From Eledone cirrhosa (Eukaryota), in contig CAXHJY010000110.1 in NCBI GenBank assembly GCA_964016885.1, forward strand, positions 1 through 64,000: DNA of 64,000 nucleotides, in the 5' to 3' direction. Every line of letters begins with the position of its first letter. Position 1 is the stretch's first letter. Positions 10,404-62,859 of the stretch are shown here, piece by piece. The position numbers and the translations under genes are program-made. A model generated the notes under the pieces. It saw only the letters and a program-made list of their open reading frames with translations. It had not been told where the DNA came from and did not search any database.

Positions 10404-10748
10404 GCTATTTCTGGGATGGCTGTTCCCTTCGGTTCCTTCGGTATAAAGTAACGTTCAAATTTTTCTCGATTCTTCTCTCCATTCGAACCCATTCATTCAA
10501 TCACTTCTATGTCCTAATTTCACACTATATCCTATTTTCACCATTCTATATCATATCTTTTCTCTAAAAATCATATTTTCCCTATCTCCGCATTTTCTCT
10601 ACCGTATTTTCTTAAACAAAACAAATCTTGTATTTTCGTTTATTGTTAAATTATGCCCAATTTTTTCTCGATTCTTCTCTCCATTCCAAAAATTTGAACG
10701 TTACTTTATACCGAAGGAACCGAAGGGAACAGCCATCCCAGAAATAGC
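10404..10748. repeat. Duplicated 5' end of the family B LINE followed by its inverted copy
   Basis: 10404-10686 matches 11254 onward; 10688-10748 is the reverse complement of 10404-10464. Confidence 0.9.
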
Positions 10749-18070: not shown

Positions 18071-19305
18071 TCAGGTTTGAGGTTCACCACTGTATAGAGC
18101 TGGTCTATTCCGTATGGTCAATCGTAATGCAATAATATAGAGAGTACTCAACGTAAGGCAGTTCAACCGTCTTTGTTTTTGTAGTTGGTGGTGCTATTAC
18201 GGAGTTAAATATTATAATGAAATGACAGGAGGCTGGATTTGCGTAAATCCTTGAAAGGTTTATTATACTATGATCATTTCAATGACCGGGTTCCTTTTCT
18301 ACTTCTCTAAGCAAAATTTTATAGTTCCAACTTTCTGTCGGACTGTTGGGTGGGTTTTAATGGCGGCGTGACCAGCTCCCTTGTGCACGAGCTTACCTGG
18401 AGTGCTTTGAAAAATAAATTGCCCCTTCTTTCGGTAAATGAAAATACTCGGCTAGGCTTAATTCGCCATGGGGCCCGGGGCGCGGCCGGTGTTTTAACCG
18501 CCACATAGTACCTTTAAATTACAGAACAAATCGGAACTATTAGATATATCAACCTGAAAATGTTAAACTGTTGAACTTTAAATTTTCTAACCTCTCTAAT
18601 ATTGAATATTGATTATTAATTTTTTAACTTCATCCTAGAAGTCTAAACATTGTAACACACTGACTCCCAATTTATTCACCTCTGCTAAGATGCGGGTCCC
18701 TGTGAAAATTTTCTCGCGCCACTCCTGGCCTGAATGTGGTCTGACATTAATATCGACCTTTCTATCTTCCTTCTTGTAGCCATCAACCCTTACTTTTCTA
18801 TTTCTCTCTCTCTTCCTTCTCTTCTCCCCTCTTCCTGTCTTCTTCCCGCAGACGTATCTTCCTTCCCCCTCTTGCTTGCCTATATCTGACCGGTAGTAGT
18901 TGCCTTTCTTCTTTTAGCTGACATTAACCCTGGCTTCTCTCCTTCTTTCTTCCCCCTTCTTCTCTCTCCTTCCTTTCTTTCCTTCTTTTACCTTGTGTCA
19001 TGAGATTGACGCTAACTTATGTTCCCATCCCTTTCTGTTTTCGTTTATCTGACCGGTAGTAGCATACTATAAACTTTAGCCCCGTCACTCGAGGGCGACC
19101 GGCTGAGGTTGAAGGAACAGAATAGCGGTCGCCCTCCGGTCCTCGATTTTCAGCCCCATGGATTTTATCTATTACATTCACATATTATATTTCGAATACC
19201 TGATGATATCACCGGATTCATACGGAACCCGGTCATTGAAATGATCATAGTATAATAAACCTTTCAAGGATTTACACAAATCCAGCCTCCTGTCATTTCA
19301 TTATA
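18071..19305 (+). mobile_element. Non-coding hammerhead-bearing fold-back insert (probable Penelope-like pLTR/3' UTR with inverted copy)
   Basis: 82-bp inverted repeat 18213-18294 / 19224-19305; hammerhead core at 19200-19249; pyrimidine-rich body; flanked by (TA)n. Confidence 0.7.
19196..19253 (+). ncRNA. Type I hammerhead ribozyme
   Basis: ATAC-CTGATGA-[stem II accgg/ccggt]-GAAA-T(GATC)A-TA-GTAT; palindromic loop III. The base of stem II is a T.T mismatch, so activity may be reduced. Confidence 0.72.
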
Positions 19306-19323
19306 TAATATATATATATATAT

Positions 19324-19367
<44 letters not shown>

Positions 19368-19481
19368 TATATATAATATATATATTATATAATATATATA
19401 TCATATATAATATATATATTATATATAATATATATATTATATATATTATATATAATATATATATTATATATAATATATATA

Positions 19482-19601
19482 CTAAACTCCCGCTTCCTCG
19501 ACCCCCACCCCCTATCCCCTCTACTTCGCGAGGGCATGGCGGTCAACCGCCCAATACACACACACATCATGCGGCCAACCCCCCCCCCCTCTCTCTCTTA
19601 G

Positions 19602-19635
<34 letters not shown>

Positions 19636-22425
19636 GATAGAAATTCACTTCGCCAAATTTCATCGCATTGCTGTCTACTCCACGATATTCATGTAACGTA
19701 ATGTACATATTTTTCTTCATCTCTACCTCCACACTCCATATTTCGTATCAAGTCCAAATAGCCAATCTATTGCTAAAACAATCTACATTTTTTGTATTCA
19801 TTAATTGTTAGATACGAAAGTTTTTTGTCGTATTGAACAGAACAAATTTTGTATTTTTGTTAATCGCTTGTTAAATGCAAGGACCCCATTCAATCATTAC
19901 CTTCTATCTAGCTACCCAACACCCCTCCCTCCCGCCCCACGCACCACCATTGCTATTACGTGGACCAATCATAAGCCAGAGCCCCCACGCATCACCAGTA
20001 TTATTATTACGCGGACCAATCATAAGCCAGAGGCCTATACTATCGCTTGCCTGGTTGCCTTTCGATATATGATGGATGGATGGACTGCGGGAATCCTGGA
20101 GAGTGGAGGAGAGAGAGAGAAAAATCTGGACGCTCAGCGACAATGCCAAAGATAAAGATAAAGACAAATTCACCTCGTGGACGAGAATGCGAGCACTCCT
20201 CATTGTTTCGACCGCGGACGGCTAACATAACCCCATCACCCACCGCCCCCTACCGCCCCCAACCCCCAAACGCAATCCAAAACTTCAGAGTTGGTACCAT
20301 AAATGTAGGCACCCTAAAGGGTCACGCTAACGAGGTTGTAGAAATGCTTGAACGTAAGGAGGTCGATGTTTGTTGTATTCAACAGACCAGGTGGAGGGGT
20401 GGGTCTGCTAGATTCATTGAGGGTAAAAAACGATGTTATAAGCTTTTCTGGGTGGGAAACGACGATGGGCTGGGTGGAATCATGGTAGCAGAAAAGTGGG
20501 CAGATAAGATAATAGACGTAAATAGAGTGAACGACAGAATAATTAAAATACGACTTGTCCTCAATAGAACTACGGTGACAGTAATATCTGCGTACGCACC
20601 CCAATCCGGACTGCCCGGCACTATAAAAGACAGATTCTATGAGACACTGATGCTAACTACCTCCCAAATATCCGACAGTGACTATATAATTATTGCAGGC
20701 GACCTAAATGGTCACGTTGGACAACATTGTGACGGCTACGACGAAATCCATGGAGGCTATGGGTTTGGTACTAGAAATGAGGAAGGCTCCAGAATCCTGG
20801 AATTCTGTGATGCAAATAACCTAACTATCTGTAACACTAACTTCAAAAAACGTGACAATCACCTGATCACCTATAGATCCGGGGAACACACAAGCCAGGT
20901 AGATTATATCCTTACCAGAAGACGTGACAGAGTGTCTGTTGTAAACACTAAATCCCTCCCCATGAAGAATGCACCTCCCAACATAGACTGATAATTAGCG
21001 ACCTCATAGTCAGGACGAGACGTACTCGACAGCAGAAGAGGACTATCCTCAGGAGAAAAATATGGAAGCTAAAGGACCCCACAGCCAGGAATAAATTTCA
21101 AAGCATATTACTTGATGCTTTCGACAGTAAGGAAGAACTTTTAGAGTCAGACAATATAGAGGGAGAGTGGGAATTTCTGAAAGCAAACCTGCTGTTGGCG
21201 ACAGACGAAGTCTGTGGCTGGAGCAGGCCTGTAGGCAGGAGGAGAGTAACATGGTGGTGGAACAGTAAGGTGGAGGGGTCAATTAAGGCCAAAAAGCAGG
21301 CTTGGAAAGTATGGCGGGATGGGGGAAGTAGAGAAGACTATCAAGTGGCCAGGAGGGAAGCTAGGAGACAAGTGTACTTAGCAAGAAGGGAAGCTGAGGA
21401 AAGAAAGTTCAAGCATGTTCTACAACGCGATGACCAAAAACGTGAGGTGTTCAGGATTGCTAGGCAATGCGTCAAGGAAAACCGTGATATTGTCGGGAGA
21501 AGTGTGTACTAAACGACGATGGCACACTTGCCATCACCGACGCTGATAAGAAGGTAGCTTGGAAGTGTCACTATGAAAGGCTACTAAATGAGGAGAATAA
21601 ATGGGAGAAAGACAGTCTCCCCCATATCGACCCAATAGAGGGACCAGCAGTGTTAGTCGAGGGGAGTATGATAAGTAAGGCAATCAAGGATATGAAGACG
21701 GGTAAGGCGGCTGGCCTTCGGAAATAGTTGCTGAGATGCTGAAGGCATCTGGCACGGTGGGACACACCATGGTCACCCGCATAGTTAACCAAGTCGTACA
21801 GAATGGGGTTGTTCCGAAGGACTGGCATAGCAGCATCATCGTTAACTGTTATAAGGGTAAAGGAGATGCCCTAGATAGGAGTAACTATAGAGGCATTAAA
21901 TTAATCGACCAGGTCATGAAGGTCACAGAAAAAGTAATAGCACAACTAATCAGAGAGAGAATTGACCTAGATGAAATGCAGTACGACAACTACAGGAGAA
22001 GTACCTAGCTAAAGGTAAACCCCTCTACTTAGCTTTTGTCGACTTGGAGAAAGCCTTCGACAGAGTCCCCCGTTCCATTATCTGGTGGGCTCTTAGAAAA
22101 CTAGGCGTTGACGAATGGCTTGTGAGAGCTATACAAGCCATGTATAAAGAAACAGTCAGCAAGGTTAGAATTAACAACGAATATAGTGAAGAGTTTAGCG
22201 TAAAAGTTGGCGTCCATCAGGGATCTGTTCTCAGCCCCCTACTATTTATTATTGCCCTTCAGGCTATAACGGAGGAGTTCAAGACCGGCTGCCCATGGGA
22301 ACTCCTATACGCAGACGACCTGACACTCATAGCGGAATCAATGGCCGAGCTAGTGAAGAAATTCCAAACATGGAAGCACGGCCTAGAATCAAAAGGCCTT
22401 AAAATTAACCTGGCTAAGACTAAAG
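19482..22425 (+). mobile_element. RTE LINE family B variant, 5' UTR + APE + RT to LAKTK; 3' end deleted
   Basis: ORF pieces 20047-20991, 21195-21512, 21736-22008, 22044-22436; ~46-bp internal deletion near 21981. Inclusion of 19482-19634 as 5' UTR is tentative. Confidence 0.9.
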
Positions 22426-25400
22426 ATGCCTACTGACTGTAGTAGGTTTTACTTTGTATTTAGGTAAAGCGGGTCTTCTCTATTACTGAGTACCGCCAAA
22501 GGTCTCGGTCCAGTGACATTGTCTTGGTGAGGGGTAAGTGTGTGAGGTCGGAATTTATCAGCTCGTCCCAGGTTTTTTCTGGGTCTGCCTATTCCGTGGC
22601 TACCGTCTATCTTTATTGCCCTGCACTTTGTTATACAGCTATCGTCCTTCATGCGCATCACGTGACCATACCAACATAGCCTTCTCTCGAGTAAACAACA
22701 TCTGATCCCTCTTATTTCTAATTTTTTCCTTAGTTCGTTTATGCTTTGTCGTTCACGTATATTACTATTACACATCCAGCGGAGCATGCAAGCTTCGTTT
22801 CTCTCTAGTCTGCGTATATCCTCTGCACACAATGCCCAGGTCTCACTGCCATGCAACATTGTTGTTCGTATGCAAGCATTGTACAACCTTCCTTTCATTT
22901 TTAGGGAGAACCCTTTAGCGGCTAATAGTGGTATAAGCTCTCTGAACTTTTTCCACCCAGTTCTGACTCTAGCTACTGTACTTTCAGAGCACCCTCCGCC
23001 ACTGCTGATTTTGTCACCCAGGTAACAGAAGCTGTCCACTATTTCTATAGAACCCTCTGCGCAGTTGAAAGAGCTAGTATTTTGTGGGCACTTGCTGCTA
23101 CTTATTGCCCCAGAACACCGGCCACATGTAAAATCTATGTTCTTAGTTAGCTTACCTCTGATCCCACTACATCTTTTATGCACCCATACTTTGCATTTAG
23201 GACATAAAATGGAATTTCTACCTACGCCTTTCCTACACTCTGCGCATGGCCACTTCCCGGAGGGGACCGCCACCTTATTTTCTTTCTTACAAACTAGAAC
23301 TTTAGTCTTAGCCAGGTTAATTTTAAGGCCTTTTGATTCTAGGCCGTGCTTCCATGTTTGGAATTTCTTCTCTCGCTCGGCCATTGATTCAGCTATGAGC
23401 GTTAGATCATCTGCGTATAGGAGTTCCCATGGGCAGCCGGTCTTGAACTCCACTGTTATAGCCTGGAGGGCAATAATAAATAGTAGGGGGCTAAGAACAG
23501 AGCCCTGATGAACACCAACTTTTACACTAAACTCTTCACTATATTCGTTGTTAATTCTAACCTTGCTGACTGTTTCTTTATACATGGCTTGTATAGCTCT
23601 CACAAGCCATTCGTCAACACCTAGTTTTCTAAGAGCCCACCAGATAATGGAACAGGGGACTCTGTCGAAGGCCTTCTCCAAGTCGACGAAAGCTAAGTAT
23701 AGGGGTTTACTTTTAGCTAGGTACTTCTCCTGTAGTTGTCGTACAATGAAAAGAGCGTCTGTGGTACTTTTTCCTGACACAAACCCGAACTTCATTTCAT
23801 CTAGATCAATTCGCTCTCTGATTAGTTGCGCTATTACTTTTTCCGTGACCTTCATGACCTGGTCGATTAATTTAATGCCTCTATAGTTACTCCTATCTAG
23901 GGCATCTCCTTTACCCTTATAACAGTTAACGATCATGCTGCTACGCCAGTCCTTCGGAACAACCCCATTCTGTATGACTTGGTTGACTATCCGGGTGACC
24001 ATGGTGTGTCCCACCGTACCAGATGCCTTCAGCATCTCAGCAACTATTTCCGAAGGCCCAGCTGCCTTGCCCGTCTTCATATCTTTGATTGCCTTACTTA
24101 TTATACTACCTTCAACTAACACTGCTGGTCCCTCTATTGGATCGATCTGGGGGAGACTGTCTTTCTCCCATTTGTTCTCCTCATTTAGAAGCCTTTCGTA
24201 GTGACACTTCCAAGCTACCTTCTTATCAGCGTCGGTGATGGCAAGTATGCCGTCATCGTTAAATACACACTTCTCCCCGACAATATCACTGTTTCCTTGA
24301 CACATTGCCTAGCAATCCTGAACACCTCACGTTTTTGGTCCTCACGTTGTAGAACATGCTTGAACTTTCTTTCCTCTGCTTCCCTTCTTGCGAAGTACAC
24401 CTTGTCTCCTAGCTTCCCTCCTGGCCACTTGATAGTCTTCTCTGCTTCCCCCATCCCGCCATACTTTCCAAGCCTGCTTTTTGGCCTTAATTGACCCCTC
24501 CACCTTACTGTTCCACCACCATGTTACTCTCCTCCTGCCTACAGGCCTGCTCCAGCCACAGACTTCGTCTGCCGCCCGTCAGCAGGTTTGCTTTCAGGAA
24601 TTCCCACTGTTCCTCTACCTTGTACGACTCTAATTGCTCTTCCTTACTGTCGAAAGCATCAAGTAATATGCTTTGGAATTTATTTTGGCTGTGGGGTCCT
24701 TTAGCTTCCATATTTTTCTCCTGGAGGATAGTCCTCTTCTGTTGTCTAGTATGTCTCGTCCTGACTATTAGGTCGCTAATTATCAGTCTATGTTGGGAGG
24801 TGCATTCTCATGGGGGAGGGATTTAGTGTTTACAACAGTCACTTTGTCACGTCTTCTGGTAAGGATATAATCTACCTGGCTGTATGTTCCCCTGATCTGT
24901 AGGTGATCAAGTGATTGTCTCGTTTTTTGAAGTTAGTGTTGCAGATAGTTAGGTTATTTGCGTCGCAGAATTCCAGGATTCGGGAGCCTTCCTCATTTCT
25001 AGTACCAAACCCATAGCCTCTATGGATTTCGTCGTAGCCGTCACAATGTTGTCCAACGTGACCGTTTAGGTCGCCTGCAATAATTATATAGTCACTGTCG
25101 GTTATTTGGGAGGTAGTGAGCATCAGTGTCTCATAGAATCTGTCTTTTATAGTGCTGGGCAGTCCGGATTGGGGTGCGTACGCGCATATTACTGTCACCG
25201 TAGTTCTATTGAGGACAAGTCTTATTTAATTATTCTGTCGTTCACTCTATTTACGTCTATTATCAGATCTGCCCACTTTCTGCTACCATGATTCCTACTC
25301 ACCCAGCCCATTGTCATTTCCCACCCAGAAAAGCTTATAGCATCGTTTTCTACCCACAATGAATCTAGCAGATCCACCCCTCCACCTGGTCTCTTGAATA

Positions 25401-26060
25401 CAACAAACATCGACCTCCTTACGTTCAAGCATTTCTACAACCTCGTTAGAGCGACCCTTTAAGGTGCCTACATTCAAGGTACCAAATCTGAAGTTTTGGA
25501 TTGCGTTTGGGGGGTGAAGGTGGGGAGCGGGGGGAGATGGGGTTATGTTAGCCATCCGCGGCCGAAACAAAGAGGCATGCTCGCATTCTCGTCCACGAGG
25601 TGTGTTTGTCTTTAACTTTGGCATTGTCGCTGAGCGTCCAGATTTTTCTCTCTTCAACTCTCCGGAACTCCGTAGTCCTTCCATCCTACATATCGAAGGC
25701 GACCAGGTAAGCGATAGTATAGGCCTCTGGCTTATGATTGGTCCACTAATAATAATGGTGGTGCGTGGGGGCGGGAGGGAGGGGTGTTGAGTTGTTAGCG
25801 AGAAGAATAGGTTTAAGTGAGATCCTCGTATTTAACGAACGTAAACAAAAATACAAGATTTGTTTAGTAAAATACGCCAAAAACTTCCGTATTTTACAAG
25901 CATGACAAAAATACAAGAGATTTGTTTTGGAAAATACAGGAGGAAATAGGATGGGATGGCTAGTGAGACAAGAATTGGAAAGAGGATAGAAAAATGCTAT
26001 GTGATTTGGAAGGACTATGGAATTAAGCGGATGTTAGAAAAGGTAGAAAAATGAGTACAT
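22424..26060 (-). mobile_element. RTE LINE family B, near full length, frameshifted; most of the 3' UTR and the tail are deleted
   Basis: ORF pieces 25295-25684 (APE start), 24872-25198 and 22449-24305 (RT + PHD). Confidence 0.95.
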
Positions 26061-26258
26061 TATAATATATATATTATATATAATATATATATATATATAT
26101 AATATATATAAATTTTGAGTTTATGTTGGTTGTATACCAACACCTCAGTATGCAGGCTGGAGCACTCGACAAAGTGCGCAGGTTGGTTTAGTTACTCCGG
26201 AGTAGTGTAAAATAAAGTTAAATAAAAGTCAAATGATTAAAATTTAGCTTCGTTTATT

Positions 26259-26312
26259 ACTGCTATATATATTTCAGTGACAGCCATCTTGGCTGTGACC
26301 TCTTCAGGCAGT
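26259..26312 (-). ncRNA. Type I hammerhead ribozyme (inverted copy)
   Basis: Reverse complement of 26809-26863 with a 1-nt shorter loop II. Confidence 0.85.
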
Positions 26313-26808
26313 TTGAATTAGTATGGTATAGACAAGTACATATGTTGTTTAGGTGTATAATATTGTCAATCAAGATATAAGCTGACCACTACACCAACAA
26401 CAGTACCAAAATAATGGTGGAGGTCAAATGTACTGAACAATAGCAGGCATAAACACCACAGGGAGCCTCACCCCAGAAAGAATTCTATAGACTTCTGACT
26501 GAGGAATGCTCTCAGAACTGACCAATGGGAAGTTTGACACTTTTTTGTTATTTTGTTCCTTTAACACCTTGTCCCTTCTACCATTTTATCAATTTTTAAG
26601 CTAACTCCAACAATAACAACACTTAGAATGAGGAATGTTCTAATAACTGACCAATGAGAGGAGAAGGGGACCTTTGACACTGAAATTCGTTTGTTTGAAT
26701 TCATATGACTCCAGTTCCTCAGTGAATTAACAACCCAACAATATCAGAGTATTGACAATATTATACACCTAAACAACATATGTACTTGTCTATACCATAC
26801 TAATTCAA

Positions 26809-26863
26809 ACTGCCTGAAGAGGTCACAGCCAAAGATGGCTGTCACTGAAATATATATAGCAGT
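26809..26863 (+). ncRNA. Type I hammerhead ribozyme
   Basis: ACTGC-CTGAAGA-[ggtcacagcca aaga tggctgtcact]-GAAA-T(ATAT)A-TA-GCAGT; core intact, perfect 5-bp stem I, palindromic loop III. Confidence 0.88.
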
Positions 26864-27285
26864 AATAAACGAAGCTAAATTTTAATCATTTGACTTTTAT
26901 TTAACTTTATTTTATAATATATATATAATATAATATATATATAATATATATATAATATAATATATATATAATATATATATAATATAATATAATATATAAT
27001 ATAATATAATATATATATAATATAATATAATATATATATAATATAATATAATATATATATAATATAATATATATATAATATAATATATATATAATATAAT
27101 ATAATATAATATATATATAATATAATATATATATAATATAATATATATATATATAATATAATATATATAATATATAATATATAATATATATATATATAAT
27201 ATATATATATAAAATATATATATATATAATATATAAATATAAAATATATATATATATATAATATATATATATAATATATATATAT

Positions 27286-28766
27286 AAAGTTGGCGTCCAT
27301 CAGGGCTCTGTTCTCAGCCCACTACTATTTATTATTGCCCTTCAGGCTATAACAGAGGAGTTCAAGACAGGCTGCCCATGGGAACTCCTATACGCAGACG
27401 ACCTGACACTCATAGCGGAATCAATGGCCGAGCTAGAGAAGAAATTCCAAACATGGAAGCACGGCCTAGAGTCAAAAGGACTTAAAATTAACCTGGCTAA
27501 GACCAAAGTACTAGTTTGTAGGAAAGAAAACAAGGCGGCGGTCCCTTCTGGGAAATGGTCGTGCTCGGTGTGTAGGAAAGGCGTAGGTAGAAACTCCATT
27601 TTATGTCCTAAATGCAAAGTATGGGTGCATAAAAGATGTAGTGGGATCACAGGTAAGCTAACTAAGAACATAGATTTTACATGTGGCCGGTGCTCTGGTG
27701 CAATAAGTAGCAGCAAGTGCCCACAACTACTAGCTCTTTCAATTGCGCAGAGGGTTCTATAGAAATAGTGGACAGCTTCCGTTACCTGGGCGATAAAATC
27801 AACAGTGGGGGAGGGTGCTCTGAAAGTACTGTAGCTAGAGTCAGAACTGGTTGGAAAAAGATCAGAGAGCTTATACCACTATTAGCTGCTAAAGGGTTCT
27901 CACTAAAAATGAAAGGCAGGTTGTACGATGCCTGCATACGAACAGCAATGCTGCATGGCAGTGAGACCTGGGCATTGTGTGCAGAGGATATACGCAGACT
28001 AGAGAGGAACGAAGCTTGCATGCTCCGCTGGATGTGTAACAGTAATATACGTGAACGGCAAAGCATAAACGAACTAAGGAAAAAATTAGAGATAAGAGGG
28101 ATCAGATGTTGTTTACTCGAGAGAAGGCTACGTTGGTATGGACACGTGATGCGCATGAAAGTCGATAGCTGTATAACAAAGTGCAGGGCAATAAAGATAG
28201 ACGGTAGTCACGGAATAGGCAGACCTAGAAAAACCTGGGACGAGCTGATAAACTCCGACATCACACACTTACACCTCTCCAAGACAATGTCACTGGACCG
28301 AGACCTTTGGCGGTACTCAGTAACAGAGAAGACCCGCCTTACCTAAATATATAGTAAAACCTACTCCAGCCAGTAGGCATCTCTAACAAAATACACCCCG
28401 TCCCACCACCCCCACCCCCACCCCATCCACACCACCCCGTTCTATGTAAAGTTATGTTGGTGCCGCGCCATCGAGGCCGAAACAAATGAGATCGTGTAGG
28501 TGTCACGACAAAAAAACACACAGTCCACGCTGTAATGTGGCCGTGTAGGCAACACGGTAAAAACCTCCCAGACCCACACTGTAAAAACCTCCCAGACCCA
28601 CACTGTAAATGTGGTTGGTGTTAGGAAGGGCATCCAACTGTAGAAAACCTGCCAGACAGTCCTATGCGAGCAAGACAATCACTCTTGCCTCAAGTGGGAC
28701 TACCCCCGTCCAAACCCATGCAAGCGTGGAACACGGACGTTAAACGTTGATGATGATGATGATGAT
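27286..28766 (+). mobile_element. RTE LINE family B, 5'-truncated (from VGVHQG), one frameshift
   Basis: ORFs 27424-27762 and 27717-28346; (GAT)n tail. Confidence 0.95.
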
Positions 28767-29083
28767 AATATATATATATAATATATATATATATAATATA
28801 TATATATATTAATATATATATATATAATATATATATATAATATATATATATATATAATATATATATATAATATATATATATATAATATATATATATATAA
28901 TATATATATATATAATATATATATATAATATATATATATATATAATATATATATATTTAATATATATATATAATATATATATATATATAATATATATATT
29001 TTAATATATATATATAATTATTATATATATATAATATATATATATTTAATATATATATATAATATATATATATATATAATATA

Positions 29084-29121
<38 letters not shown>

Positions 29122-29966
29122 TATATAATATATATATATATATAATATATATATATATAATTATATATAATATATATATATAAATATTATATATATAATA
29201 TATATATATATAAAATATATATATATAATATATATATATATAATATATATATATAATATATATATATATAATATATATATATATAATATATATATATTTA
29301 ATATATATATATAATATATATATATATATAATATATATATATTTAATATATATATATAATATATATATATAATATATATATATAATATAATATATAATAT
29401 ATTATATTTAATATATATATATTTAATATATATATATTTAATATATATAATAATATATATTTAATATATATATATTTAATATAATTAATATATATAATAT
29501 ATATAATATATATATAATAATATATATATATTTAATATATATATATTTAATATATTTATTTAATATAGTATATATTTAATATATATATATATATATATAA
29601 TATTTATATTTAATATATATAATTATATATATAATATATATATAATATATATATATATACTATATATAATATATATATATATAATATATATAATATATAT
29701 ATATATATATCTATAATATATATAATATATATATTATATATATATATATAATATATATATAATATATAATATATATATAATATTAATATATATATATATA
29801 ATATATATATATATAAATATATATAATATATATATATATAAATATATATAATATATATATATATAAATATATATATATAATATATAATAATATATATATA
29901 TATAAATATATATATATAAATATATATAATATATATATATAAATATAAATAATATATATATATATA

Positions 29967-30004
<38 letters not shown>

Positions 30005-30182
30005 AATATAAATAATATATATATATATAAATATATATATATAAATATATATAATATATATATATATAATATATATATAATATATATATATATAATATAT
30101 ATAATATATATATAATATATATATAATATATATATTATATATATAATAACTATATAATATATATATAATATATATATAATAT
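28767..30182. repeat. ~1.4-kb interrupted (TA)n microsatellite
   Basis: Direct inspection. Confidence 0.95.
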
Positions 30183-30416
30183 ATCATCATCATCATCATC
30201 ATCATCATCGTTTAACGTCCGTGTTCCATGCTTGCATGGGTTTGGACGGGAGTTTTCCCACTTGAGGCAAGAGTGGTTGTCTTGCTCGCATAGGACTGTC
30301 TGGAGGGTTTTCTACAGTTGGATGCCCTTCCTAACACCAACCACATTTACAGTGTGGGGCTGGGAGGTTTTTATCGTGTTGCCTACACGGCCACATTACA
30401 GCGTGGACTGTCTGGC
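30183..30416 (-). mobile_element. RTE LINE family B, 3' UTR-only insertion
   Basis: Reverse complement of ~15477-15706. Confidence 0.93.
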
Positions 30417-30450
30417 ATATATATATAATATATATAATATATATAATAAT

Positions 30451-33400
30451 ATCATCATCATCATTTTTACGTCCGCTTTTCCCTGCTTGCAAGGGTGGGA
30501 TGGGTCTTATTCAGCACAGCATCTCTCCACTCGTCACGGTCCCTCGTCATCTCCACCGTGAGCTTCAATGATCTGAGGTCTGTTATCACCACCTCCGCCA
30601 TGTTTTTCGTGGTCTACCTCTACCACGTCTTCCTTCAACTGGCAATTCCTGGCACTTCTTCACCCATCGGTCATCCTCCATGCGCATCACATGTCCATAC
30701 CACCTCAGTCTCCTCTCCCGTACACTACATTCTATCCCTCTCAGACACAGTTTCTCTCTCAACACATTTATGCTGGGTCGTTCACGCACATTTACACTGC
30801 ACATCCAACGGAGCATGCTTGCCTCATTTCTCTCCAGCCGTCGCATATCCTCTGCAGTTGCTGCCCATGTCTCACTACCATGCAGCATCGCGCTCCTCAC
30901 ACAGGCATCATACAACCGGCCTTTCGTACGCAGGGAGAAACCCTTCTTCACAACAGAGGAAGCAGCTCCTAAACTTCTTCCAACCCGTCCTTATTCTAGA
31001 TACTATCGCCTCGGAACACCCTCCTCCCATGGTAATCTGATCTCCTAGGTACCGGAAGCTATCCACCACTTCTATAGCGCCCTCTTGCATTTGAAAAATG
31101 TGTCTATCAGTGCGACTTCTACTGTCTAATTTCCCTGTACATCTACAGCATACATATTTCTCCCTACCTGTTAGTTTGCCTGCTATCCCGCTACATCTTT
31201 TGTGTACCCAGGATCTGCATTGTGTGCATTTTATAGAATTTATGCCAGTTCCTTTTCTGCATATCGAACATGGCCATTTCCCTGACGGAATCAGGGTTTT
31301 GTCCTCTTTTCTACTCATCAACACTTTTGTCTTAGCTAGATTCACTCTCAGTCCTCTTGCTTCCAACTGCTGTTTCCATAGTCAGAATTTATTCTCTAGC
31401 TCCTCTACTGATTCTGCTATAAGAACCAGATCGTCAGCGTAGAGAAGTTCCCATGGACAGCCAGTCTTAAACTCCTCTGTTATGGCTTGGAGGACTATAA
31501 TGAACAAGAGCGGGCTGAGGACTGAACCCTGATGTACTCCTACTTGTATCTGGAATTCCTCACTAAACTCCATTCCTACCCTGACTTTACTGAGAGTACC
31601 TCTGTACAAAGGTTGCACTGTCCTCACAAGCCATTCCTCAACACCTAGCTTCCTTAGGGACCACCAGATGACAGATCGGGGTACCTTATCAAAGGCCTTC
31701 TCTAGGTCAACAAAGGCTAAGTATAGTGGCTTATTCTTCTCTAAGAACCTCTCTTGCAATTGTCTCACCAAGAAGAGGGCATCTATTGTACTCTTCCCAG
31801 GCACAAAACCAAACTGCATCTCATCTAGTTTGACCCTTTCTCTAATTAGTTGTGCTAAAATCCTTTCTGCCACTTTCATAACCTGATCTATCAGTTTTAT
31901 ACCCCTATAATTGCTCCTCTCCAAAGCATCCCATTTACCTTTGTAGCAATTTATGAGAATACTGCTGCACCAGTCTTTGGGTATGACACCACCATATATA
32001 GTCTGATTGATGATGCGTGCAACCAGTTTAGTGCCTACGTCCCCTGATGCCTTCAGCATCTCAGCAACAATTCCCGATGGTCCGGCAGCCTTACCATTTT
32101 TCATTTCCCTAATCGCCTCTTGGACCCTATATTCGTCAATCTCAATAGCTGGTCCCTCTGTCGGATCCACCAAAGGTAATTTCTCTCTCTCCCATTCGTT
32201 CTCCACATTCATCAGTCTCTCATAATGACATTTCCAGGCCTCCTTTTTCTGATCATTCGTGACATTAAGTACACCGGCATCATCCCGGACACATTTATCT
32301 CCAACAACATCCTGATTTGCATTGACACACTGCCTTGCAATGTGGAACACCGCACGCCTCTGATCTTCCCGTCGCAGAACATTGGCAAACCTCCTACTCT
32401 CTGCCTCCCTGCGTGCTAAGTACACCTGACGTCTAGCTTCTCTCTTAGTGGCTGTACATTCTTCCCTACTCCCACCCTTTTTCCAAGCCTTCCATGCTAG
32501 TCTTTTGTCTCTAATAGCCTTATCTACTGTGCTGTTCCACCACCAGGTCACTCTCTGTCTGGTTGGAGCTCTGCTCCAGCCACAAGTTTCATCAGTAGCC
32601 TGCAGCAAGTTGTCACGTAGGAAATTCCAGTTATTATCTATGTCATACGTCTCTAAATCGTCTTCTTTTTCGTCATATACATCTTGAAAGGCTTTCCTAA
32701 ATTTGTATTTTAGTGAAAGGTCTTTTAGCTTCCAGACCTTTCTCCACACCTTCCTATATGTCTCATTCCATCTCTTGCTTACTGAGATATCACTAACAAC
32801 TAACCTATGCTGTGGGGTACATTCTTCCCCAGGGTATGCCTTGGTATTAGACACTATCTGCCTGTCCCGCTGCCTAACTAGCAGGAAGTCAATCTGGCTT
32901 ATGTGCTCACCAGATTTGTAGGTTATTAGGTGATTGGCAGGTTTCTGGAAGTTTGTGTTGCAAATAGTCAATGTACCCGCATCACAAAATTCAAGAAGTC
33001 TCACTCCTTCCTCATTTCTTGAACCGTAACCGTTCCCACCATATATCCCAGTGTAACCATCCTGGAGCTGTCCAACATGACCATTGAAGTCTCCTGCTAG
33101 CATAACAATGTCTCCGTCCTCTGTCATTGCGGTTGTTTGCAAAAGTTGCTCATAAAAGCAGTCTTTCTCATCTTTGCCTAGGCCTGCTTGGGGAGCATAG
33201 GCCGAGATGATTGTCAGTAGTCTCCTACCTACAACTAATCTAAGCTTAATTATTCGATTACTAACTCGAACTACCTCTATTGTCTTATTGATCCATTTCT
33301 CAGCCAGGAAAATGCCTACTCCCCCTAGCCCATCATCCTTACCTACCCAGAATAGCTTATAGCTAAGACGCTTGCCTACGAGTAGTCTCGCAGAGGCACC

Positions 33401-34435
33401 TCTCCATCTCACCTCTTGCACGCAGCACACATCCACCTGCCTTCTCTCCAGCATCTCCGCTATTTCAGCAGATCTACCTCTGAGAGTGCCAACATTAAGT
33501 GTTGCAACTCTGAGATGCGATGTCTTCATATTTTGTTGTTGTTCCTATTTGTTGCTGTGCTGATAAGAGTTTTGGCATTGATACACTGGTTGGATGCCCT
33601 TCCTAACACCAGCACCACTTTACAGCATGGACTGGGTGCTTTTATTTGTGCCACCAGCACTAGAGAGGATGTCTTACTAGACTCAAGGGCCCTCTCTACC
33701 CCTCCATTTTACAGCATGGTCATAAAAAAAAAAAAATTTTCAAAAAACTTATTGACACGACGCACACACAAACACTCACACACCAACACTCATGCATACA
33801 AACCACAACCACACACACGCCACTCACATACCAACACTCATTCATGCATACAATCACACACACCACTCACAAACACACATATATATACATATATTACCGA
33901 CAGTACTGATACAAATACAAAATCAAAATCAAAATCATCAAAATCAATATTATGTCAACTGTTGACCTTTCCCAGTCCAGTTCAGCTTGTATATAATAAC
34001 AATAATAATAATTGTTTGCTTTACGCTGGTAGTGGCGTTGGTGGTGGTGAATCGTGCCAGTGTGGTGGTGGTGGATGGTGTCAGTGTGGCGGATGGTGTC
34101 AGTGTAGTGGTGGTGGATGGTCAGTGATGGTGGTGGCAGTTGTTGGTGCTGTAGTTGTTGTCGTTGTTGTCGCTGTTGTTGTTCTTCTTCATTTCACTGC
34201 TGCTGTTGCTGCAGACAATGGTGTTGATGCTGTTATTGCTGTCGCATATATACATACACACACATTCAACACAGACAATGGTGTTGTTGCCGTTGTTGTT
34301 GTTGGTGTTGCTGCTGTTGTTGTTGTAGTTGTTGCTGTGTTGAAATCTGGTCGCATCCATACATATAAACACACATATATATATGTATATACACATACAT
34401 ACATCAAAAGAGTCAGCAGTATGTCAACAGGGACA
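30451..34435 (-). mobile_element. RTE LINE family C, probably full length; one stop and one frameshift in the 3' third
   Basis: ORF 31382-33529 (APE + RT to YADD), then 30908-31366 (PHD) and 30586-30951. Very short 3' UTR with (GAT)n. The simple-repeat-rich 33530-34435 is read as 5' UTR; its boundary is inferred from the flanking TA tract. Confidence 0.9.
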
Positions 34436-35094
34436 TATAATATATATAATATATATATATAATATATAATATATATATATAATATATATATATATAATAT
34501 ATATATATAATATATATATATATAATATATATATATAATATATATATATATAATATATATATATAATATATATATATAATATATATATATAATATATATA
34601 TATAATATATATATATAATATATATATATAATATATATATATAATATATATATAATATATATATAATATATATATAATATATATATATAATATATATATA
34701 TAATATATATATATAATATATATATAATATATATATATAATATATATATATAATATATATATATAATATATATATAATATATATATATAATATATATATA
34801 TAATATATATATATAATATATATATATAATATATATATATAATATATATATAACATATATATAATATATATATATAATATATATATAATATATAATATAT
34901 ATATAATATGTAATATATAATATATAATATATATATAATATATATATAATATATAATATATATATAATATATAATATATATATATATATAATATATATAT
35001 ATATAATATATATATAATATATATAATATATAATATATATATATATAATATATATAATATATATATATATATAATATATATATATATATATAAT

Positions 35095-35137
<43 letters not shown>

Positions 35138-35408
35138 TAATATATAATATATATATATATATAATATATATAATATATAATATATAATATATATATATAT
35201 ATAATATATATATATAATATATATATATATAATATATAATATATAATATATATATATATAATATATATAATATATATATATATATATATAATATATAATA
35301 TATATATATATAATATATAATATATATATATATAATACATATATATATAATATATATATATATAATACATATATATATAATATATATAATATATATATAT
35401 ATATATAT
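34436..35408. repeat. (TA)n microsatellite with TAA interruptions; right boundary of the first transposon nest
   Basis: Direct inspection. Confidence 0.95.
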
Positions 35409-35694
35409 TACAAGAGCAAACATACTATTTGAAGATAGTGCATTCCATTGACATCACTGTATTATATATTCCTTAGTATATATAGAGAGAGATAAAAATA
35501 GCAATGGAAACTCTAATGGGTTGTGTTTCCTGATTTATGGAGACAAATAGGAGTACAATCTATGGAAGACTCGACTATCTATTGTATATATAAACACTCC
35601 TAATGGGTTATGATTTATTTATTTAGTACCTACTATAGCCGAGGATGTGAAAGCTAAAGCCAAAATTATTTGACACCCAGTAGTTTATACACAA

Positions 35695-35840
35695 CGAAAT
35701 GGCAAAGTCGTTAGAACGCCAGATAGAATGCTTTGTGGTATTCGTTTCAGCTCTGAGTTCAAATCCCGCTGAGCTCAACTTTGCCTTTCATCCATTCAAG
35801 GTTGGTAAAAAGAAGTACCAGTCTAGTACTGGGGCCAATT
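35695..35840 (+). mobile_element. Decayed tRNA-derived SINE
   Basis: A-box-like tggcaaagtcg, B-box gagttcaaatccc, then a core caactttgcctttcatcc..aagtaccagt resembling mollusc SINE cores (from recollection). Confidence 0.6.
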
Positions 35841-36259
35841 CACCCTCTATATCTCTGCATCACTTCCATTCTCTCACTATCTTTCTCTAGAAGAAATCTA
35901 CTATATTCTAACATTAAGAGGATTGGGTTCCACCAGGTTTTAAAAGTGCCCTAGAAACACTATGTTAATACGGCACACCTACGACTCCCTTAGGAGTTAT
36001 AGGACCATGCCATACCATGCCATCAGTAGTTTAAGTTAAGTTCTTTAAGCCCAAGAAGGAATTGGGGAAAAGGTGGTAATAGCACCTATCCATTACTGAA
36101 ATAGAAATTGAATGGAGAATTTCTCAAGGTACTCCTAAAGAATCTTTCCTTGGACCACATGAATGGACCACATGAATGTACATTTTTCATCCATCTTTCC
36201 CATGTAGTTTATTTTAATTCTATTTTTTTTAAATTGTTAATTGTCCGAGGTTTAGAATG

Positions 36260-36503
36260 TGTCTGGAGGATCTTAGAATGTCTGGATCCAATGTTGATCT
36301 TTTCTTTGCAAAATATTTTCTTTTGTCTCTTCCACGTCTGTATATAGTTGTAACACCATTTTCACATACCCTTGCAGAACATGTTCCGTTCTTCCATAAT
36401 GTTGTATTTGTAATCTTTGCTCAGAGTTTGTGTCTGTGCATATTATTTTGTACAGATTTATGCCCAGGTGTGATATTTTCCTATCATTTCTCATGCATTA
36501 CAG
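36260..36503 (-). mobile_element. Possible decayed Penelope-like GIY-YIG C-terminal fragment
   Basis: Weak motif similarity only (..EHV..ILQRKDQHWIQTF). Confidence 0.25.
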
Positions 36504-37764
36504 GTAAAACTCACACACACACACGTGTGTGTGAGTGTGTGTGAATTTACAGATACTAGTGAGTTTATATATTTCATACAACCTTATAGTTACTTCTTAT
36601 TTGTGTGATAGAGAGAGAGAGAGAGAGAGTGGGGAGAGGGGGAGAGAGAAGGAGAGATAGAAAGAAAGAGAGGAAGAAAGAAAGAAACAAAGAGAGAGGG
36701 GAAGAAAGTCTGCAGTGTTGACTACACCCTTGAAAAGACATGCTGAACACACAAACCAAAACCTCTGGGCACAGCGGTCAGGATTTTACACACACACACA
36801 CACACACAATAATCCATATTTTCATATGCACATCTACACTACACACATGTATTCACACATGCATCCATACGCACAAACATTCATATGTACATATTCACAC
36901 ATGCACTGAGACAAACATACAGCATATACACATATGGGAGCATGGGGGCACATACACACATGCATGTTTACACAGGCACAAAGACACTCATAATAACACA
37001 CATCATATACACATGTGAGTACATTCACACACAAGCATGCATATATTTGCATATTCACAGACACCAAGACACACAAACAAACATACATCATACACTCATG
37101 TAAGTATGTTCAAACATGCACACGCACATTTACACAAGCACTAATACACATACAAAATACACATGAATGTTCACACAGGTAGACTTATACATATACACAT
37201 TTGTTCCCAGAGGCCCATGCAAAAACACGTACGTGTACATTCATACAATTCTCATAATTCCCTTGGCATCTTCCTGTTTATCACAGGAAGACTTGATATT
37301 AGATATTTCCAGCATTTTAATGAACCAAACAGCCAACCAATCGAAGTGGAGCTTTCTTCAAGCATTGCCTGCCAACTATTGAAAATATTCTATCTATTCA
37401 ATTCTCCGAAAAATAACAGCCAGTTAACATGCTAAATAATGTAGCAATGAATGAAAAACCAAAACAAGAGAAAATTAAATATACTGCTCACACCTCAGAG
37501 CGCACACTAATTCAATGGTCACAACAAAGAGTGAAGATACCTTTAACCCATTCAATACCATTATTCTAGTGAAAGACACTGCCTATGATTTTTAAAATAA
37601 TCAATAATTTGGTTCGATTTAGTAATATAACAAACATTCTCATTAGCAAGTGTTTTGGAGCATTACTTAAAGGATTTGACATAATATTAGGATGGAAGGT
37701 TTTTAGATAAATATGAAATGGCTGTGCAGTCTCTGTTTGGTTGTATGCTTCTTTCAACAGACAT

Positions 37765-38045
37765 TCATCATCATCATCTCTATTTAACATCTATTTTCCA
37801 TGCATGCATGGATTAAACGGGTTGCCATATATTGAGGCTAGACTGGTCAGGTGCTTGTATGATTTGTTTTGGATTGATTTCTATGTCTGGATACCGTTCC
37901 TGATTCTAACCACTTTACCGCATGCACTAGGAGCATTTTATCACGATTCTGGCACTACCATCTTACAAGGTGGTCTGGGAGCTTTAGTCATATCACCAGC
38001 GCTACCACTTTACAGAGTGGACTAGGTGCTTTTTATCATGGTATC
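37765..38045 (-). mobile_element. Old RTE 3' UTR / RTE-tailed SINE remnant
   Basis: (CAT)n tail, ttttccatgcatgcatgg and tggataccgttcctg..gtgcttttt motifs similar to the family A/B 3' UTR. Confidence 0.6.
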
Positions 38046-39959
38046 AACAATAGGGAGGCATTGATGGGAAAGATGATACCACCATGAGAGAGGAAGCATT
38101 GAGGTATGCCGGTGGCTTTCAAGAGAGTGAGCTGTGTCTGGTGATATATTGTAAGGCATGTCTGGATTTCCATGTTGACATGAGTTGGACAAGGAACAGG
38201 GATGCATGGGCCTGGCTTTCTATGTTGGTATAGATTGGACAAAGAAAATGAATCAGGAATGTGGATGGAAGTAGGGAGCACGTCTTTCTTCCATGCTGTC
38301 ATAGGTTAGGTCAAGGAAGGTGAATTTGAGATATAGGAGAGGGAAGCACAATTCAAGAGTGGGAGGACACTTTTTTTCTTGCTGGCATAAATTAGATGAG
38401 GAAAGGAGGATAGTTAGGAAGATTAAGGTAGGGAAGGTGGACAGAAGAATTAGAGATTGTCTTCCCATGCTGACATGAGTTGGGTAAAGAGAAGGGGAAT
38501 CAGTGGCGCAAATGGGAAGGAAGACTAAGTGGTGGTGGTGGTAGGAGATAATGAGAGCCTATAAAGAGTGTTACACCTCACTGCTGATGTTTCACACTCC
38601 TCATGTAAGAGGAGAATCTTCTGTAGTACATGTCACTATTTGACTCAACTGAGAAAGATAAATAAGATAGTGCAATACATAGAAAGTGGTGTCACTAAAT
38701 GCTACAATACATTTTTTCCAATGCTTTACCAATTCTCTCAATCTACCAGCCTTGGAAAATCATTTAATAAAGGACAAATTTTTATCTGCTAAAATTTAAT
38801 CTTACCTTTCATATCATAAAATGATTTCAGTTGAGATTTTAATTTTTTCTTCTTCGCCCACTATTCCTGGGAAGGTTGTGGGGGCAGAGTTCTCAAACAC
38901 TCCTTCCAGTAGGTCCTATCAGAAGCGACCATCCCCAATTAATCCGACTGGATCCCCAAGCGAGAACTGCCGAGCTCATGGATGTTATCCAATCATCTTA
39001 CTCGTGGTCTACCCCTGGGCCTCCTACCCATAAAATTTATTCAGCAATTCTTTCCTGAGACATTCTAGCCACATGCCCATAATAAATATCGGCATTGTGA
39101 CCTCTAAATTCAGCACAAGCTGGATCAACCTCTCTGATCTCGGAGCTACGAACTCTATCAAGTAACGTTACTCCAAAGACCCTTTGGAGGAACCCTATTT
39201 TGGCTGCTTGTGTTCACGATCGTATTGTTTCAGTCATTACTTAAGATTCGTGACAAAAATTCAATTTTAATTTAAATCTTAATGCTTTAATAAGTGACTC
39301 AATGTTGAAATGAGTTAAAGCAAATAAATTACTTACCTCCTGAAAAATATCTAGTTCGGAACATAAGGAACGGTAAGTCGAAGACTATAATCCATTATTA
39401 CTTCTCACCACATTTGACAGTAAAATTCCTCCTGAAATACAAAGATAGGAATTGTTAGTGGGTGGCAAAATGTAATGCTTTTTATATGAAATAATGGCAC
39501 TACTATGAGTATGATAACAATAAAATAATAGAATGGGTCACCATTGTAACCAATGAAATGTAAATAATATCTATTTGAAATAAACATCATTGAATCAGGA
39601 GCAGTTACAAACAGTTTGGTATGAAAAGTATTAAGGTCATGCAGATGTTTATTGTCCCAGATAAGATAATTATCTGTAGCATATGAATTAAGAGTCTGGA
39701 TACATCCTCCAAGAATCCAAATTCAGCTATACTTTGATCTCAGTGGGTTGGTACACATCCTGTCAGTCTAATAACAGGTATGAAGCTTAAAGTGTATTTT
39801 GGGTAATGTTGACTCCTCATCAAAGGTCTATAGATATCATCCTTTTCCTGTATTATCTTTTACCATAATGGTGTCAAGAGAGCAGCTAATCTCCACAATA
39901 AAAGATATTTTGGTTAATTTTGTTAGTAATGTCAGGTCAGTTGCTTTTTAATTTCATGG

Positions 39960-40207
39960 CTGTTTTCATTTTTAGAAGTTGGATAATTCAATGCAGCCAA
40001 TCACCACTGAGGGTTGCATCCATCAGCAGCTTTCCAGTGTGATTCACCAGAACAGACAGCTCAATATATACTGAGTGAGTGCCCAAATCTCCAACCACCT
40101 ATGGTTATGGACGTCACACACCCTAATCCCACTACCATGAGCTGGTTCCAATGCCTGGGAGACATCACATAATTGCAGCTATCTTATATGCCAGAAGAAG
40201 AAAAGAT
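39960..40207 (+). mobile_element. Decayed Ingi/Vingi-like LINE 3' end
   Basis: Translation ..FNAANHH*GLHPSAAFQCDSPEQTAQYILSECP..P..W..* is a CCHC knuckle remnant, followed by an agaagaagaaaaga tail. Confidence 0.5.
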
Positions 40208-40501
40208 TCTTTAGGTTCCACCAATATTCTTTTGAGCCATAGGTCTCAATATATTCATTGTTATTTATTATATCAATTTTTCTTTTTCACTCTATTCTAG
40301 ATTGTTCTGACAACCAAATCAACTCATGTTAAGGCTGTATCATCATCACCATCATTATTTTACATCCATTCTTTCATGCTATATATATATAAGGAATACA
40401 TTGCAGGTGAGGTGTCAAGCATTTCAGAAAATGAATTTTTGACAAGAGATGAAATAAATGTATAAATAAATAAATAAGTAACTTTAAAACAAACAAAAAT
40501 A

Positions 40502-40542
<41 letters not shown>

Positions 40543-41579
40543 TAATAATGATAGAGTTTCTGCTTGGAAAGAAATATGGAAGGAAGGACAACAACACAAA
40601 AAAAATGAATAATGTTGACGTAAAAGTAATAGAAATGGATGCTGAAATAACTAGTGGAGACAGGAGTGAAGAATTTGGAAAATGGTATTGAAAGGAAGCT
40701 GCAATTCCTCTGCTGACATATATTCTCTGGAATGAGAGACAAGAAACAACAATGGGACCTTAAAGAAAGGGGACAAAAAATATTTAGGGAACGGATGAGA
40801 AGCATTTTTTTTTAATTATTCAGAGAATTTGGATGATTAACAGGAGGACCCTTCTGTGATCTCCCTCACCACATTACCCTTTCCTCCCACTGGTGGTAGT
40901 GTGTGGGGTGAAAGAGTGGATAGAGAAAGGAAGGGTAGAGATTCCTGTCTTGTTTGAAGTATATTAGTGGCAGTGTGTGGGAGATGGGCTGATTATAAAC
41001 ATGTGTATGGAAGTAAGGGGATGTGTGGCGATGATGATGTGTGTGTGTGTGTGTGCACGCGCGCGCAAGAGTGTGACGAGTGCAGGGGTGGCGTGGGAGT
41101 TTATTTAATGGGTGATATATGTAATGTGTATGTGTGTAATGTGTGTGTGTGTGTAATGTGTATGTGAATGGAATCTAGAGCAGATGATGATGGGGGGGGG
41201 GGGGGGTAATTAATATTTATAAACAAAAAATTAAATAAATAAATAAAGCAATAGATAAATGTAGAGATGAAGAAGAAATTTAGGAATATGGAAGAAGTGA
41301 GAATGAGTGAAAAGGAGGAGATGACATTATCAATATTATTGATAACATGGAAGGTAGTAAACAAGTCAGTAGAGCAACAAACCAAGAGGCACAGGTAAGG
41401 TTGTATGGTTATGAAGTTTGTTTCACAGCCATGTGACTTTGGGATTACATTCTATTATATATATGTGTGGGTATGTGTGTATGTATATGTATGTATGTAT
41501 ATGTATGTATATGTGTATATGTATGTATGTATATGTATGTATATGTATGTATATGTATGTATGTATATGTATGTATATG

Positions 41580-41637
<58 letters not shown>

Positions 41638-41704
41638 TATAGAAAAGCTTCTACGAGACTAGAACTGTTTCATTCGTGAGAAATCATCATTGAACCCGGA
41701 ATAA

Positions 41705-42597
41705 CATCATCATCATCATCATCATCACCGTTTTACGTCCGTTCTTCCACGCTAGCATGGGTTAGACGGGTTGTCCTGTTGTGGGCAGTGTCTGGTCGGC
41801 TGACCATGCCTTGCTCATACAGGAACTGATCTGGCTTGATTTCTACAGCTGGATGCCCTTCCTAACACCAACCTCATTTACAGTGAGTGCTGGGTGCTTT
41901 TTCGTGGCGCCTACACGTCCACTTTACAGTGTGGGCTGGGTGCTTTTTTGCCGTGGCACCTCCACGACCACCTTGCGGTGGGGGGGGGGGGGGGGCATAT
42001 TGTTTATATGCTTCAGCATGTACCCATGGGAGGTCGGGTACCCTGTATTACTGCGTGACGCCAGAAGTCACGGTCGTGTGTCATTGACTTTGAGAGGTGT
42101 AGTTGGGTAAGGTCGGCTTTTATCACCTCATCCCAAGTCATCTTGGGTCTCCCCACTCCGCGGTTTCCATCAACTTCTAGTGCTCTGCACCTTTTTATGC
42201 AGCTGTCATCCTTCATACGCATCACATGTCCATACCAGCGTAACCGCCTCTCCTGCACGCAGCATTTGATTCCTCTTATGCTCAGTCTCTCTCTCAATTC
42301 ATTTATGCTTTGTCGTTCACGTATATTACTGTTACACATCCATCGGAGCATGCAGGCTTCGTTTCTCTCTAATCTACGTAAGTCTTCCACCTTCAGCGCC
42401 CAGGTCTCACTACCATGCAACATCGCTGTTCGGATACACGCATCATACAGTCTGCCTTTCATTCTGAGGGAGAAGCCTTTTGCAGCTAGCAGTGGTAGTA
42501 GTTCCCTAAACTTCTTCCATCCCGTTCTTACCCTAGTTATTGTACTTTCTGAGCACCCACCTCCGTTGCTAATTCGGTCACCTAGGTAGCAGAAGCT
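41705..42597 (-). mobile_element. RTE LINE family A, 3' fragment
   Basis: The element-derived part of ORF 42013-42636 (from SFCYLGD) is identical to the C-terminus of 56160-59279; (CAT)n at 41705. Confidence 0.95.
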
Positions 42598-42610
42598 ATA
42601 TATATATATA

Positions 42611-42996
42611 GTTAAAAGAATAGAGGTGTAACACACAAGTTATTATATATTGGTAAACGGAATAGAAAATGCTGACAAATTGTTCACAGTTGAAAAATGG
42701 TTTAATTAGGAATAAAAGAGGTTTTTAAGTTTTTACCGGTTGCGCATTTCTAAATGCTTTTCAAAAATAATTTTGAGATAGAGTGTCCGTGCTGTTTGCT
42801 CTGATCAGAGCAAACAGCACGGACACTCTATCTCAAAATTATTTTTAAAAAGCATTTAGAAATGCGCAACCGGTAAAAACTTAAAAACTTAAAACCACAA
42901 CTGAATAATAACCCATACAATCACTAATACTCTTTTATTCCTAATTAAACCATTTTTCAACTGTGAACAATTTGTCAGCATTTTCTATTCCGTTTA

Positions 42997-43005
<9 letters not shown>
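42611..43005. repeat. Large spacer-less palindrome centred at 42804/42805, with a degenerate minimal hammerhead in each arm
   Basis: Arms 42644-42804 and 42805-43005; a 41-bp segment (42889-42929) is present in the right arm only. Confidence 0.9.

Positions 43006-60070: not shown

Positions 60071-62859
<2,789 letters not shown>

Follow-up and report, generated by a model that had tools for sequence, protein, structure and literature searches.

Inverted arms of three Penelope-like insertions in (TA)n arrays of Eledone cirrhosa combine one short with one long fixed end

Three inserts in a 64,000-nucleotide (nt) stretch of Eledone cirrhosa DNA (contig CAXHJY010000110.1, positions 1-64,000, assembly GCA_964016885.1; the window in the following) raise the question of how the end of an element comes to face a near-perfect inverted copy of itself, and why the two copies stop at different points. 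The inserts (18071-19305, 26111-26915 and 42611-43005; Table 1) are each flanked by (TA)n arrays, and alignment of the arms bore out the TA-bounded fold-back layout described in a sequence-only reading of this DNA. That reading had the inverted arm run ~140, ~97 and ~33 nt past the end of the direct arm, for which we measured 147, ~99 and ~39 nt, but the 'short unique bit' it had placed there is the fixed tail of the respective family, present also in direct orientation in many copies. In the arrays beside inserts 1 and 2, the imperfections show the same bias on either side of the insert (AA:TT of 41:1 and 10:5 for insert 1, 3:2 and 48:0 for insert 2), and the flanks thus do not look mirror-copied. 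The three inserts are 5'-truncated landings of three families of Penelope-like elements (PLEs), here termed F1, F2 and F3, in (TA)n, and their architecture of inverted pseudo-long terminal repeat (pLTR), tail on one arm and (TA)n target is the known, ordinary PLE footprint. New is the strictness with which a short and a long end are coupled, which we did not find in print.

Two end points are in use in each family, namely a short site and, behind a fixed tail of 147 (F1), ~95-100 (F2) or 39 nt (F3), a long site. Exact 25-28-nt end motifs occur 2081 (F1), 3525 (F2) and 8448 (F3) times in the genome (3.0 Gb), with no match for reversed controls, and at least four TA units lie within 40 nt at 200 of 210 terminal ends; each insert belongs to a high-copy family, and the layout is found genome-wide. 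Pairs of outward-facing ends were taken with near-exact anchors from the first 100 end matches per family, ordered by position, on contig C1; excluded were one F2 pair (L081) and the final two F3 pairs, and two-mismatch anchors added a few pairs. One short was combined with one long end in 89 of 93 pairs (F1 31/31, F2 28/31, F3 30/31), as compared with 46.5 mixed pairs expected if the sites were chosen independently (P = 3e-22). Both sites are used about equally (long-site usage 0.49). Our literature search, which did not extend to key subscription-only papers, returned neither a coupling count nor a two-site twin-priming model, and neither tails of ~100-150 nt nor a kilobase-sized Hydra-type family without open reading frame (ORF). 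A separate observation concerns the F2 long ends, 10 of 35 of which (terminal ends, e.g., L147, L204, L216 and L218) show two or more TC units on the way from the tail into (TA)n, against one in the element; this looks like stuttering at initiation.

Table 1. Positions of the features discussed, in window coordinates (RT, reverse transcriptase; UTR, untranslated region; clade names by motifs).
Positions	Strand	Insert	Feature
18071..18217	-	1	F1 tail (147 nt) up to the long site, adjoining (TA)n
18217..18294	-	1	F1 inverted arm in common with the direct arm (19224-19301, 1 mismatch); 3' half of the hammerhead only
18295..19301	+	1	F1 direct arm, 3' part of an ORF-less 2.4-kb monomer, ending at the short site
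19196..19253	+	1	Minimal type I hammerhead motif, loop III TGATCA; predicted cleavage between 19249 and 19250
26111..26209	-	2	F2 (Hydra-clade PLE) tail, ~99 nt, long site
26210..26370	-	2	F2 inverted arm (against 26751-26912, 1 indel), with complete mirror hammerhead motif
26371..26912	+	2	F2 direct arm (3' UTR/pLTR) up to the short site
26810..26862	+	2	Minimal type I hammerhead motif, loop III TATATA
42611..42650	-	3	F3 (Neptune-type PLE) tail, ~39 nt, long site
42651..42802	-	3	F3 inverted arm (against 42803-43000, 1 mismatch) with 41-nt deletion
42803..43000	+	3	F3 direct arm without hammerhead core; loop-less palindromic joint centred on GATC (42803-42806), a hot spot of the family
3761..6113	-		Hydra-type PLE from a fourth family, 5'-truncated, with RT C-terminus, CxCX5C linker and GIY-YIG; short end, no inverted arm
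3798-3860			Hammerhead motif within element 3761-6113

In 87 single-switch insertions (89 mapped), the tailed arm was the longer one in 30 cases and the untailed arm in 26, while in 31 the two were equal within 15 nt; arm lengths span ~20 to 4800 nt. Non-majority bases common to both arms amounted to 0.0122, 0.0096 and 0.0136 per column versus 0.0009, 0.0009 and 0.0020 in shuffled pairs. Rare variants are thus shared between the arms 7-13 times as often as between shuffled partners, and above all 500 shuffles (27, 27 and 26 insertions), which argues for an origin of both arms from one source. Among 86 joints, we observed microhomology overlaps at 43, blunt junctions at 6 and short inserts at 16, with 21 not cleanly mapped. 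Loop-less palindromic joints recurred at GATC in F3 and at CATATG in F2 and occurred once at CG; as palindromes of 2-6 nt leave no loop, such joints cannot fold back on themselves. Arm ends cluster in hot zones ~200-225 nt upstream of the short site, which take in 10 of 62, 22 of 56 and 21 of 56 arms in the three families and whose limits were set with the data in view. In these zones, both arms often stop together and are joined on GATC or CATATG without a loop. Reference positions 222-225, where arms also stop, are the starting points of 5 of 7 unpaired F2 copies. At the hot spots lie what we take to be initiator-like and CATAAAA/TATAAA words; in the simplest reading, the hot spots probably mark a fixed RNA 5' end.

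These observations can be explained by a single complex of reverse transcriptase (RT) and endonuclease (EN) that starts cDNA synthesis from the two ends of a (TA)n break, at one RT start site each, with the two cDNAs joined head to head, and we regard this as the likely course of events. The complex would open both strands of (TA)n, and each DNA end would start one cDNA at a different fixed RNA site, short versus long, with the assignment of ends to sites being presumptive. Copying may halt anywhere, most often ~200-225 nt upstream of the short site at what is probably the RNA 5' end; the identical cDNA ends would then anneal via short palindromes or microhomology and be welded head to head by repair. 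We slightly favor one RNA copied twice by strand displacement over two RNAs from one source. For a Poseidon element in vitro, two internal RT start sites were found to delimit the tail, both target strands were nicked and extended, a dimer was predicted, and hammerhead cleavage was not needed (PMC11167929). More tentatively, and with somewhat less than even confidence, PLE tail and inverted pLTR could be one and the same event, in which a dimer uses a single RNA to prime the two break ends, with one subunit per fixed start site, and the two cDNAs are welded head to head; this would hold in Hydra- and Neptune-type PLEs with or without ribozyme, and would be exploited by a kilobase-sized, gene-less ribozyme RNA family that has kept only the start-site signals.

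Several points weigh against two-site priming by one complex. Four pairs break the rule: L157 with a false anchor, L162 with a tail broken after 8 nt, L158 with two long and L281 with two short ends. Private variants were found in both arms 11, 13 and 4 times and in one arm 32, 42 and 40 times, and variants common to the arms would also fit one dominant source locus or later gene conversion. The transcription start is read from 5' ends alone, and the signal of equal arms outside the hot zones, which a single RNA should give, is weak, at 2/24 (P = 0.11), 3/14 (P = 0.003) and 0/14 (5/52 in total). [quoted passage not shown] Finally, no autonomous partner of F1, in the form of an ORF-bearing element with an F1 end, was found among the copies checked.

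The strongest competing explanation, albeit in our view an unlikely one, is that the 3' end of a single cDNA folds back and primes itself (PMC3846280), whereupon the endonuclease trims one arm at the short site ('EN-mediated resolution' in PMC8557442). This would yield one tail per insertion, variants common to both arms, palindromes at the joints and near-equal arms (31/87), and the short sites of F1 and F3 do lie within self-complementary TA words. However, simple self-priming requires a tailed arm at least as long as the untailed one, and the untailed arm is longer in 26/87, which means that trimming must strike either strand; moreover, the 2-6-nt palindromes leave no room for a hairpin loop, and the short site corresponds to an RT start site observed in vitro in another clade (PMC11167929). 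Quite improbable is the spread of dedicated palindromic non-autonomous units as fixed fold-backs, in the manner of miniature inverted-repeat transposable elements or retrozymes. Near-identical palindromes of 392 nt (F3) and 438 nt (F2) do recur and F1 is ORF-less, but arm lengths vary over the range given above, the recurrent palindromes differ at their centres and carry different alleles on both arms, the tail is on one arm and never on the other, and F2 and F3 arms extend into RT/EN ORFs. The dedicated non-autonomous element that the sequence-only reading had offered as its alternative applies to insert 1 alone, and even there the fold-back is built anew per insertion. Priming of the two ends independently, on separate RNAs and at any TA-like site met, which is the sequence-only reading taken at its word, is barely tenable: both sites are TA-like and about equally used, yet it predicts half of the pairs to be alike (4/93 are) and arms as unlike as random copies, which they are not. 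Of the twin priming first suggested for these inserts, PLE origin, (TA)n target, variable inversion points and head-to-head cDNAs are supported, while TA-like sites in general give way to two fixed, coupled sites (89/93). An assembly artefact or later rearrangement beside (TA)n seems equally far-fetched: palindromes and microsatellites are difficult to assemble, and a read lay-up covering the direct arm only (two RAD-seq, i.e., restriction site-associated DNA sequencing, runs; two contig sets) gave related copies with depth rising toward the 3' end and listed no clear strand-change joint, but the arms are non-identical with distinct family-specific ends, the structure recurs at 89 separate loci in three families, and it agrees with published PLEs.

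As to the identity of the families, the clade assignments rest on motifs. F1, F2 and F3 as families show a pLTR derived from a partial tandem, an inverted 5' copy and the tail; longer F2 and F3 copies continue into frames for RT followed by a GIY-YIG EN at the C-terminus, are bounded by pLTRs on both sides and frequently include an inverted 5' copy. The variable inversion points with upstream RT/GIY-YIG ORFs, proposed by the sequence-only reading as a sign of twin priming at each insertion, were found for F2 and F3, and its statement that there are no ORFs is correct for the inserts themselves, although the elements whose ends form inserts 2 and 3 do have ORFs. Full elements carrying RT and GIY-YIG are L081, L083, L088 and L080. 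By these features, insert 2 represents the 3' end of a Hydra-clade PLE that is autonomous: F2 has RWK, DKT, a CxCX5C linker, no CCHH, CxxC and CxH around conserved E and N, and a hammerhead in the pLTR, with 64/69 ends in TA. In L081 the RT and EN motifs were seen by eye, with no Pfam match for RT or GIY-YIG and weak GIY-YIG matches for two like elements. Insert 3 is, on corresponding grounds, the 3' end of a Neptune-type PLE, as judged from the C-terminal EN, a CX4CxxC linker (Neptune type CX2-5CxxC) and CCHH in L088 and L078 translations inspected by eye; L088 matched Pfam GIY-YIG (E = 2.9e-08) and, below the cut-off, RVT_1 (E = 8e-04). The truncated element at 3761-6113 is likewise Hydra-type in its motifs. 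The earlier link to the Naiad clade was not upheld: Naiad elements have an N-terminal EN and no canonical hammerhead (PMC8557442), whereas here the EN is C-terminal (F2, F3) and hammerhead motifs are present (F1, F2). L080, L050, L106, L286 and L010 represent two or three further hammerhead PLE families with short-plus-long pairing and tails of ~85-95 nt.

Hammerheads had been assigned to all three inserts, which is correct for inserts 1 and 2 but not for insert 3. Like inserts 1 and 2, the element at 3761-6113 carries a type I core with a palindromic six-base loop III. The cores of the two inserts have CUGANGA, GAAA, UH and stems I-III; a cleavage site is predicted in insert 1 (Table 1). In a comparison of five families, whose rows were hand-picked by the motif itself, such that pairing speaks for a consistent design and not for activity, stem I, stem III and the loop palindrome were paired in 40/40 cells (0/500 shuffles scored as high), and stem I and the loop palindrome were kept with changes on both sides. 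Rfam gave no hammerhead match on the window, nor on 121-nt pieces (E values up to 10); Rfam miRNA matches at 42764-42845 were below the gathering score and reflect the palindrome only. The full-length F3 element (5252 nt) has no sense-strand CTGANGA and no UH after GAAA-TGCGCA. The inverted copy of the ribozyme-bearing end is a complete mirror motif in insert 2 but comprises only the 3' half in insert 1. Truncation at the predicted cleavage site was considered and rejected, as inspection by eye revealed no pile-up of arm ends there.

Insert 1 is part of a hammerhead monomer of 2.4 kb that has no ORF and carries Hydra-type signals. The longest frame in the F1 monomer (2414 nt) has 112 amino acids, the best tblastn match had an E value of 1.1, and no PLE frame was found; monomers come in sizes of 2.4 and ~1.85 kb, and the copies seen comprise about two units at the most. 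For 30 out of 55 and 30 out of 145 monomer starts, as well as 30 sister-family copies, checked over 1.5 kb (nine were extended), there was no PLE ORF except in neighboring insertions (lying upstream, on the opposite strand or beyond a (TA)n array) and in one direct join. In this single case (L271, position 1733), F1 nt 276 is fused without a gap to an RT-EN element of another type, itself 5'-truncated, perhaps by a template jump or a nested insertion. F1 has two sister families, of which F1b is also ORF-less. The inserts had been described as unrelated in sequence; yet inserts 1 and 2, and F1 and F2 as families, have in common the hammerhead design, the tail motif ACTCC...GAGT and, immediately beyond the long site, a GCTC-loop-GAGC-CTTCAAA hairpin, and motifs of this kind also occur at other Hydra-type ends. 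A Hydra-type protein probably acts in trans to copy F1 RNA. Two further observations concern F1. A mini-monomer of ~468 nt (nt 1-85 joined to 2032-2414) occurs in tandem and inverted at G000:C1:164673167-164676810 (L327/L328) and is retrozyme-sized. Monomer nt 1345-1414 (about window 18390-18460) are 85-89% kept between F1 and F1b in unalignable surroundings; the antisense strand reads CCAGGTAAG there, which is splice-donor-like, and sense-strand pyrimidine tracts ending in AG lie downstream.

The window holds other TA-bounded elements without hammerhead core, namely a non-coding one whose terminal inverted repeats are perfect over 61 bp and which includes a tandem unit of 202 bp (10404-10748 and 11254-11712) and an 870-bp one with 287-bp direct terminal repeats (8152-9025). 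Several copies of endonuclease-RT long interspersed nuclear elements (LINEs), which we take to be RTE-like, are stacked in the same (TA)n arrays (11655-15685, 19805-25899, 27287-28760, 52754-59569 and 60364-62850), one with an inversion at 22421-22425.

In twin priming of the LINE L1, two target ends prime on the element RNA, and the inversion, joined by microhomology, leaves an inverted 5' piece; here, both start sites are fixed and close together, resulting in an overlapping inverted duplication. The formation of inverted pLTRs and one-sided tails has been named unresolved (PMC8557442), and the steps after first priming were left unvalidated in the Poseidon work (PMC11167929). The 89/93 coupling makes a yes/no prediction for that existing in vitro system, according to which the two strands of one target use different start sites. 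Non-LTR (long terminal repeat) retrozymes (PMC7229834; bioRxiv 10.64898/2026.07.22.740005) and non-autonomous Chlamys elements such as MRC1 (PMC8557442) resemble F1 in being ORF-less, PLE-related and tandem-capable with a type I hammerhead. However, the retrozymes form 170-400-nt tandem repeats with a canonical hammerhead, while F1 (2.4/~1.85 kb, minimal hammerhead) is dispersed and 5'-truncated with the full PLE end structure. The F1 group bridges full PLEs and small retrozymes, and marks candidate cis signals for Hydra-clade copying. F2 matches Hydra-clade PLEs, as their motif set is defined in section 11 of PMC8557442, in RWK, DKT, CxCX5C, absence of CCHH, hammerhead and (TA)n; it was set beside the clade, of which Hydra-1_Obim is listed in the supplement of that paper, by motifs. 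Hydra elements tend to be under 3 kb, which is not diagnostic, versus 4.15 kb for F2 (4152 nt between short sites in L081) with its long RT-EN linker and 3' UTR. Poseidon PAc in vitro (Frangieh et al. 2024, PMC11167929) is similar in having two tail-delimiting RT start sites with AC-rich RNA nearby; that paper reports no homology between primer and start site, whereas both sites are TA-like here, and takes up neither inverted pLTRs nor how the two sites are paired. The EN-containing (EN+) PLE insertions described by Arkhipova et al. (2013, PMC3846280) and Craig et al. (2021, PMC8557442) are close to ours, with 5'-truncated partial tandems, a head-to-head inverted copy, a tail at one end, palindromes at joints and a (TA)n target. 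Their tails measure 30-40 nt, compared with tails of also ~95-100 and 147 nt here, and the one-tail rule has now been counted and holds independently of which arm is longer. The present data fit joining of two cDNAs better than the self-priming proposed in PMC3846280.

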